DNA of 5,022 nt from a virus (lineage: Duplodnaviria; Heunggongvirae; Uroviricota; Caudoviricetes). Below are positions 2 through 5,022 of the stretch, piece after piece. Under the pieces are notes generated by a model, which saw only the letters and a list, made by a program, of their open reading frames with translations, was not told where the DNA came from and searched no databases. The stretch is taken from IMG/VR virus record IMGVR_UViG_2740892229_000003. The stretch is one strand, 5' to 3'. A program made the position numbers and the translations under genes. Positions within the stretch are counted from its first letter, which is position 1, and each line of letters opens with the position of its first letter.

Positions 2-4721
<4,720 letters not shown>

Positions 4722-4741
4722 ATTTTCATAACCCATATGCG

Positions 4742-4765
4742 GGCGCCATTTCTGGCGCCTTTTTT
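4742..4765 (+). terminator. Rho-independent terminator candidate between J and lom
   Basis: Perfect 7-bp GC-rich stem (ggcgcca at 4742-4748 pairs with tggcgcc at 4753-4759), 4-nt loop tttc, then a run of six T at 4760-4765. It starts 21 nt after the J stop. Confidence 0.6.
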
Positions 4766-4778
4766 ATTGCAGAAAAGC

Positions 4779-4784
4779 GAGAGG
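4779..4784 (+). promoter_or_regulatory. Shine-Dalgarno sequence for lom
   Basis: gagagg lies 5 nt upstream of the ATG at 4790. Confidence 0.5.
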
Positions 4785-4789
4785 TAATT

Positions 4790-4990
4790 ATGCGTAAAGT
4801 TTGTGCAGCCATTTTGTCCGCAGCCATCTGTCTGGCCGTATCCGGTGCGCCTGCATGGGCGTCTGAGCATCAGTCCACGCTGAGCGCGGGGTATCTTCAT
4901 GCCCGGACGAACGTTCCCGGCAGTGATGATCTGAACGGGATTAACGTGAAATACCGTTATGAGGTAAGCGTCAACGGAGCACCGTATTGA
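4790..4990 (+). CDS. lom: Lom-like outer membrane protein, N-terminal 66 codons only (truncated; possible pseudogene or junction artefact)
   Basis: ATG at 4790 with an SD upstream. Translation MRKVCAAILSAAICLAVSGAPAWA/SEHQSTLSAGYLHARTNVPGSDDLNGINVKYRYE has a typical signal peptide with an AWA cleavage motif and matches the N-terminus of lambda Lom as I recall it. After codon 58 the sequence diverges (VSVNGAPY) and hits TGA at 4988-4990, whereas lambda Lom is about 200 aa. The position immediately after J matches lambda gene order. Confidence 0.7.
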   Translation: MRKVCAAILSAAICLAVSGAPAWASEHQSTLSAGYLHARTNVPGSDDLNGINVKYRYEVSVNGAPY

Positions 4991-5022
4991 CGCTTATTTA
5001 TTGGTGAGTACTACGTTCCATG

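Follow-up and report, generated by a model that had tools for sequence, protein, structure and literature searches.

The lom fragment downstream of J

The window (the whole 5,022-nucleotide stretch of viral DNA analysed here) ends in an N-free piece of 893 bp (positions 4130-5022) that is 100% identical to the closed chromosome of Escherichia coli 2013C-4991 (NZ_CP027355.1; positions 5441-6333 of the extracted locus L001, whose numbering is used for this genome below). It encodes, on the plus strand, the 3' end of gpJ, the tail tip attachment protein J (4130-4721, stop codon at 4719-4721; the corresponding L001 coding sequence, 2553-6032, reaches window position 4721), followed by the 5' fragment of an Ail/Lom-family gene (4790-4963). 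A consensus terminator scan of 4600-5022 made its sole call past the J stop codon and ahead of the lom ribosome-binding site: a plus-strand, terminator-like, GC-rich hairpin with a T run (4741-4760; GGGCGCCATTTCTGGCGCC followed by TTTTTTATT); a consensus promoter scan of the same interval called no promoter.

The lom fragment comprises 58 codons, which specify a signal peptide and approximately 34 mature residues. In a profile search, residues 1-59 of the reading frame matched positions 1-59 of the 199 positions of Pfam Ail_Lom (PF06316; E = 3.3e-32), in agreement with the initial annotation, which had recognized a Lom-like signal peptide and about 35 mature residues. Full-length members of this outer-membrane beta-barrel family have about 199 residues, made up of a signal peptide and an eight-stranded barrel, and the open reading frame in the window is a gene fragment in comparison. 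It extends from 4790 to 4990 and encodes a 66-aa chimeric product (MRKVCAAILSAAICLAVSGAPAWASEHQSTLSAGYLHARTNVPGSDDLNGINVKYRYE|VSVNGAPY*), of which the last eight codons and the TGA stop (4964-4990) are contributed by an insertion sequence and continue the reading frame of the lom fragment. A product of 66 aa would be without seven of the eight expected barrel strands, and therefore this lom is most likely a pseudogene; NCBI PGAP likewise annotates a pseudogene with the C-terminus missing.

The break in the reading frame, placed initially after about 58 codons at approximately 4963, falls exactly between 4963 and 4964. A search of 5426 complete E. coli genomes with positions 4690-5022 gave thousands of records that aligned over bases 1-274 of the query only (the J-lom part), and DNA similarity to intact lom genes ended at base 274, which is window position 4963; all 333 bases were aligned in only five records, at 100% identity.

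The gene had been described as a homologue of lambda lom, a description that holds for the Ail/Lom family and not for lambda lom itself. Similarly to lambda lom and the Ail/Lom genes of other prophages, it directly follows J and precedes a tail fibre gene, and it has in common with lambda Lom the Ail_Lom profile and a conserved GINVKYRYE motif, which stands at the break. Identity to lambda Lom is only 44%, however, and the gene in the window differs further in being a pseudogene split by an insertion sequence; as a prophage Ail/Lom paralogue, it is assigned by sequence comparison to what appears to be a distinct Ail/Lom subgroup that is common in E. coli prophages. Alignment of 4790-4963 with lambda (NC_001416, 18965-19585) shows approximately eight residues to be missing from the prophage protein in the first predicted loop.

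An ISEc23 end adjoins the lom fragment

The sequence that follows the break, initially reported as unrelated DNA, consists of the terminal 59 bp (4964-5022) of ISEc23, an insertion sequence of the IS66 family, from the end that adjoins the transposase gene tnpC; the element is antisense to lom, and the window ends within it. A comparison with insertion-sequence ends had been recommended; the match found is to an ISEc23 end with its first base at 4964. No Lom frame had been found past 4963, and indeed the minus strand there carries the 3' end of tnpC (4994-5022, TAA stop at 4996-4994), encoding an IS66-family DDE transposase: positions 4994-5020 specify its last eight residues and stop (WNVVLTNK*), identical to those of the complete copy in L001. 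The imperfect terminal inverted repeat of the element occupies 4964-4987 (GTAAGCGTCAACGGAGCACCGTAT), with 20 of its 24 positions matching the other end, and starts with GTAAGCG. A GTAA start is found family-wide among IS66 terminal repeats as described in ISfinder, and abrupt loss of homology at GTAAGCG is a recognizable signature of an IS66-family end. The sequence at 4964-5022 begins GTAAGCGTC, which is the reported start of the terminal repeats of classic IS66 members, elements with a three-ORF layout (PMC12888890).

Matches to the 59 bp were found in 4426 of the 5426 E. coli genomes, mostly at 95-100% identity and on chromosomes as well as plasmids, with two places per genome as the median and 42 as the maximum. 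At these places, the annotated genes are those of IS66-like ISEc23 or IS682 transposases; the name ISEc23 is taken from the NCBI PGAP annotation. ISEc23 is close to IS682 and ISEc47 and is a classic three-ORF IS66 element; the part visible in the window is 100% identical to its tnpC-side end and shows no difference from it. The identification of 4964-5022 as an ISEc23 end is established by these results.

The complete locus in closed genomes

The junction is present at 100% identity in five closed E. coli chromosomes, four of which are nearly identical in length and probably represent one clone, so that the junction is supported independently by about two genomes. In E. coli 2013C-4991 (L001), the gene order is gpJ, a lom pseudogene without its C-terminus, the insertion sequence, a lom pseudogene without its N-terminus, and a tail-fibre gene. 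The ISEc23 element at this locus is 2532 bp long (L001 6275-8806); it carries tnpC, tnpB and tnpA, all on the minus strand and antisense to lom; its ends read GTAAGCGTCAAC... and GTAAGCGTAAAC...; and its 24-bp imperfect terminal repeats, GTAAGCGTCAACGGAGCACCGTAT and GTAAGCGTAAACTGACCGCCGTAT, both start with GTAAGCGT. The same 8 bp, GTTATGAG, lie on both sides of it (L001 6267-6274 and 8807-8814), of which the first copy corresponds to window positions 4956-4963 and the second lies beyond the far end of the element. A duplication of 8 bp is that reported for IS66 (PMC6778807). In-silico excision of the element together with one copy of GTTATGAG restores a 600-nt open reading frame, the 199-aa product of which matches Ail_Lom over positions 1-199 of 199 (E = 4e-122). 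All of this is observed in the closed genomes, from the exact junction to the complete element, its duplication and a restorable lom.

Every defining feature of an IS66-family insertion was found. The tnpC gene of L001 (6305-7918, minus strand) encodes PF03050 (DDE_Tnp_IS66, E = 9e-98) along with PF13817, PF13005 and PF13007; the window holds the last eight codons and stop of tnpC, and the domain assignment comes from the L001 copy. Outside the window, tnpB (L001 7949-8299) encodes TnpB_IS66 (PF05717, E = 1e-36) and tnpA (L001 8296-8721) an HTH_Tnp_1 domain. The domains found in the proteins of the element are therefore DDE_Tnp_IS66, zf-IS66, LZ_Tnp_IS66, DDE_Tnp_IS66_C, TnpB_IS66 and the HTH transposase domain. 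How IS66-family elements transpose, and what TnpA and TnpB contribute, is still poorly understood.

The element is also mobile by the measure of its distribution: 2489 of the 5426 E. coli genomes have copies that cover at least 80% of the 2532 bp, in diverse surroundings on both chromosomes and plasmids, and many of the ISEc23 copies listed are 100% identical. An identical 2532-bp copy is located on a plasmid of the same strain, 2013C-4991 (NZ_CP027357.1, 118432-120963), adjoining traD. The identity of copies across the chromosome, the plasmid and other records suggests that the spread of ISEc23 is recent and ongoing. The chromosome of 2013C-4991 has 11 places that match the element, and the 2532-bp ISEc23 is found at 100% identity in at least about 60 other E. 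coli records among those listed.

Insertion of ISEc23 into lom

We conclude, with a probability of roughly 0.93, that the lom gene of a lambdoid prophage was inactivated by insertion of ISEc23 between codons 58 and 59, in antisense orientation. The DDE transposase would have joined the ends of the element to staggered cuts in the target, giving rise to the 8-bp duplication of which GTTATGAG at 4956-4963 is one copy; window position 4964 is the first base of the end that adjoins tnpC; and the rest of the element, followed by the 3' two-thirds of lom, would be expected further on in the source chromosome. A simple insertion in the source predicts the tnpA-side end of ISEc23, then GTTATGAG, then TTTACGGACACACTGGGG..., with a far junction reading ...CAGTTTACGCTTAC|GTTATGAGTTTACGGAC. 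The window contains one IS end, one copy of the duplication and the 5' part of lom, and the complete picture is borrowed from the related closed genomes, whose far side the source genome presumably has as well.

Among the origins initially proposed for the junction, an insertion boundary is the one borne out, since ISEc23 begins at 4964 and since GTTATGAG and the rest of lom are found on its far side in the closed genomes. A full-length lom frame running past 4963, which was to have exposed the break as an assembly artefact, is not what the closed relatives contain: the insertion sequence comes next, and the remainder of lom only after it. A deletion or recombination junction and an assembly join made without Ns had been the other proposals, and both are rejected on the evidence of the same junction, duplication and lom remainder in the closed genomes.

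The hairpin at the IS end

The inverted repeat noted beyond the break is real and has the 12-nt loop attributed to it, whereas its arms, given initially as 7 nt, are perfect over 10 nt: TAAGCGTCAA (4965-4974) and TTGACGCTTA (4987-4996) form a palindrome (4965-4996) whose predicted fold includes an inner ACGG/CCGT stem. T-rich sequence follows it on the plus strand (TTATTTATTGG), as had been observed. Rather than belonging to unrelated DNA, the hairpin is situated wholly within the terminal region of the element; it shares bases with the 24-bp terminal repeat and takes up the 30-bp non-coding stretch from the IS tip to the tnpC stop codon (4996-4994, minus strand).

The hairpin might be functional in its own right, and compatibly with the insertion, as an intrinsic terminator of lom transcription on the plus strand or as a stabilizer or terminator at the 3' end of the tnpC mRNA on the minus strand. 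The segment 4960-5006 folds far more stably than shuffled sequences on both strands (-19.5 kcal/mol, z = -4.8 on the plus strand; -17.0 kcal/mol, z = -5.8 on the minus strand; 0 of 200 shuffles as good in either case); TTATTTATTGG comes next on the plus strand; and on the minus strand the hairpin begins directly after the tnpC stop. Judged as a possible Rho-independent terminator, the hairpin has a stable fold and, on the plus strand, a T-rich tail, but the consensus scan of 4600-5022 did not call the hairpin as a terminator, and no T run follows it on the minus strand.

Comparison of ten IS66-family ends (ISEc23, ISEc47, ISKox1, ISKpn24, ISEc22, ISEc8, and unnamed elements of Salmonella, Serratia and Klebsiella) argues further against such a function. 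Two motifs, GTAAGCGT and CCGTATTGA, are constant in all ten ends, and the full 11-nt CCGTATTGACG is kept in nine; the 3' arm of the hairpin lies within this conserved non-coding motif, which could be taken to favour a functional hairpin, but binding of the transposase to the terminal repeat explains the conservation better. Across the ten ends, none of the 14 proposed pairs shows a compensatory change: pairing is kept where both columns are conserved and is broken at most variable positions, and the stem is largely lost in the group of ISEc8, ISEc22 and ISKpn24. The palindrome of ISEc23 and ISEc47 results from the two conserved motifs being complementary to each other. A conserved RNA or DNA structure was accordingly considered and found to be unsupported. 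All told, a function of the hairpin itself is unlikely, and the narrower proposal that the near-palindromic last 34 bp (4964-4997) serve the ISEc23/ISEc47 branch specifically, as an insulating terminator or as a DNA hairpin in transposition, is more doubtful still.

The best reading of these alignments is that the hairpin is a conserved, protein-binding IS-end sequence that would be self-complementary by chance in the ISEc23/ISEc47 branch, the CCGTATTGA/CCGTATTGACG motif being a probable transposase-binding site. The hairpin and the T-rich run may nevertheless dampen read-through from lom into the element. The motif CCGTATTGA (window 4982-4992; approximately 79-89 in the extracted loci L004-L012) is non-coding and lies directly downstream of the tnpC stop in ends that share only about 66-95% identity overall; CCGTAT also occurs in the other terminal repeat.

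Rearrangement, misassembly and the composition of the window

The junction could be genuine and the 3' part of lom nevertheless have been removed or moved in the source genome, through a deletion or inversion by recombination between copies of the insertion sequence. The far side of the element lies outside the window, the related genome has multiple copies of ISEc23, and IS66 copies mediate large deletions by homologous recombination (PMC6778807). There is no sign of such an event in the window, however, and the closed genomes that are 100% identical to it here, and also in a J fragment from a second prophage, contain a simple insertion whose duplication is intact, which makes a subsequent rearrangement in the source very improbable.

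That J fragment is one of the pieces from which the window is assembled. Fourteen runs of exactly 10 N (starting at 663, 985, 1144, 1350, 1666, 1880, 2104, 2200, 2296, 2963, 3147, 3357, 3893 and 4120) interrupt positions 663-4129, and the intervening pieces align, at 90-100% identity, with one and the same gpJ gene over intervals that overlap. The piece at 3904-4118 has only 90% identity with the J gene that adjoins lom, but matches at 100% a J gene that lies in another prophage of 2013C-4991, at 2.65 Mb; it is 100% identical in all five genomes with lom::ISEc23 and also in HCP5S3_I4, whose lom region matches the J-lom part only. The source appears to be a draft assembly from a strain of this lineage, one in which N spacers link small contigs that come from several J paralogues, and the long open reading frames across 663-4129 are assembly constructs, not real genes. 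The most likely reason for the window to end inside the element is that ISEc23 is multi-copy in the source and that a short-read assembly broke there; its end is probably a repeat-induced contig break, 59 bp into the insertion sequence. A contig built from short reads would be likely to stop within a few tens of bases of entering a repeat of this sort.

An assembly of this unusual kind, in which overlapping fragments are joined by 14 runs of 10 N, calls for caution about any join, and the patchwork of J fragments, the low contiguity and the multi-copy nature of the element are what could be said for a misjoin of a lom contig and an IS contig without Ns, with lom intact in the real genome; such an artefact is scarcely credible when five closed chromosomes share this junction and have the 8-bp duplication and the lom remainder at the other IS end, when a chance misjoin would not hit the exact first base of an IS terminal repeat, and when the N-free piece matches the lom::ISEc23 locus at 100% over its entire 893 bp.

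Significance of the insertion and related events

Insertion of ISEc23 into lom accounts for the truncated gene and for the end of the contig, and carries little weight beyond annotation: this is an ordinary insertion-sequence boundary, already annotated, and nothing new. In lambda, the genes from J to the side tail fibre form part of a late operon, and an insertion that separates J from the side tail fibre genes might be polar on the latter. Lom-family proteins have been linked to adhesion, and loss of lom could slightly alter the surface of the lysogen, although several lambdoid prophages are present in the strain. The exact junction, found in 5 of 5426 complete E. coli genomes (four of them likely one clone), could serve as a lineage marker. 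A literature search found no paper that joins lom, prophage and IS66, and papers on ISEc23 were surveys only.

A comparable case is a prophage lom pseudogenized by ISEc12 (IS21 family), which was in turn hit by ISEc23, in E. coli strain AVS0223 and its relatives. ISEc23 is involved in both cases, but the insertion site in lom and the primary insertion sequence differ, which identifies an independent event. Further records that resembled the five genomes in the search with 4690-5022 (H6-H10) belong to this different event and were set aside. In NZ_CP124415.1 (L002 4100-8995), from another E. coli lineage, ISEc12 cuts lom elsewhere and ISEc23 is nested within ISEc12.
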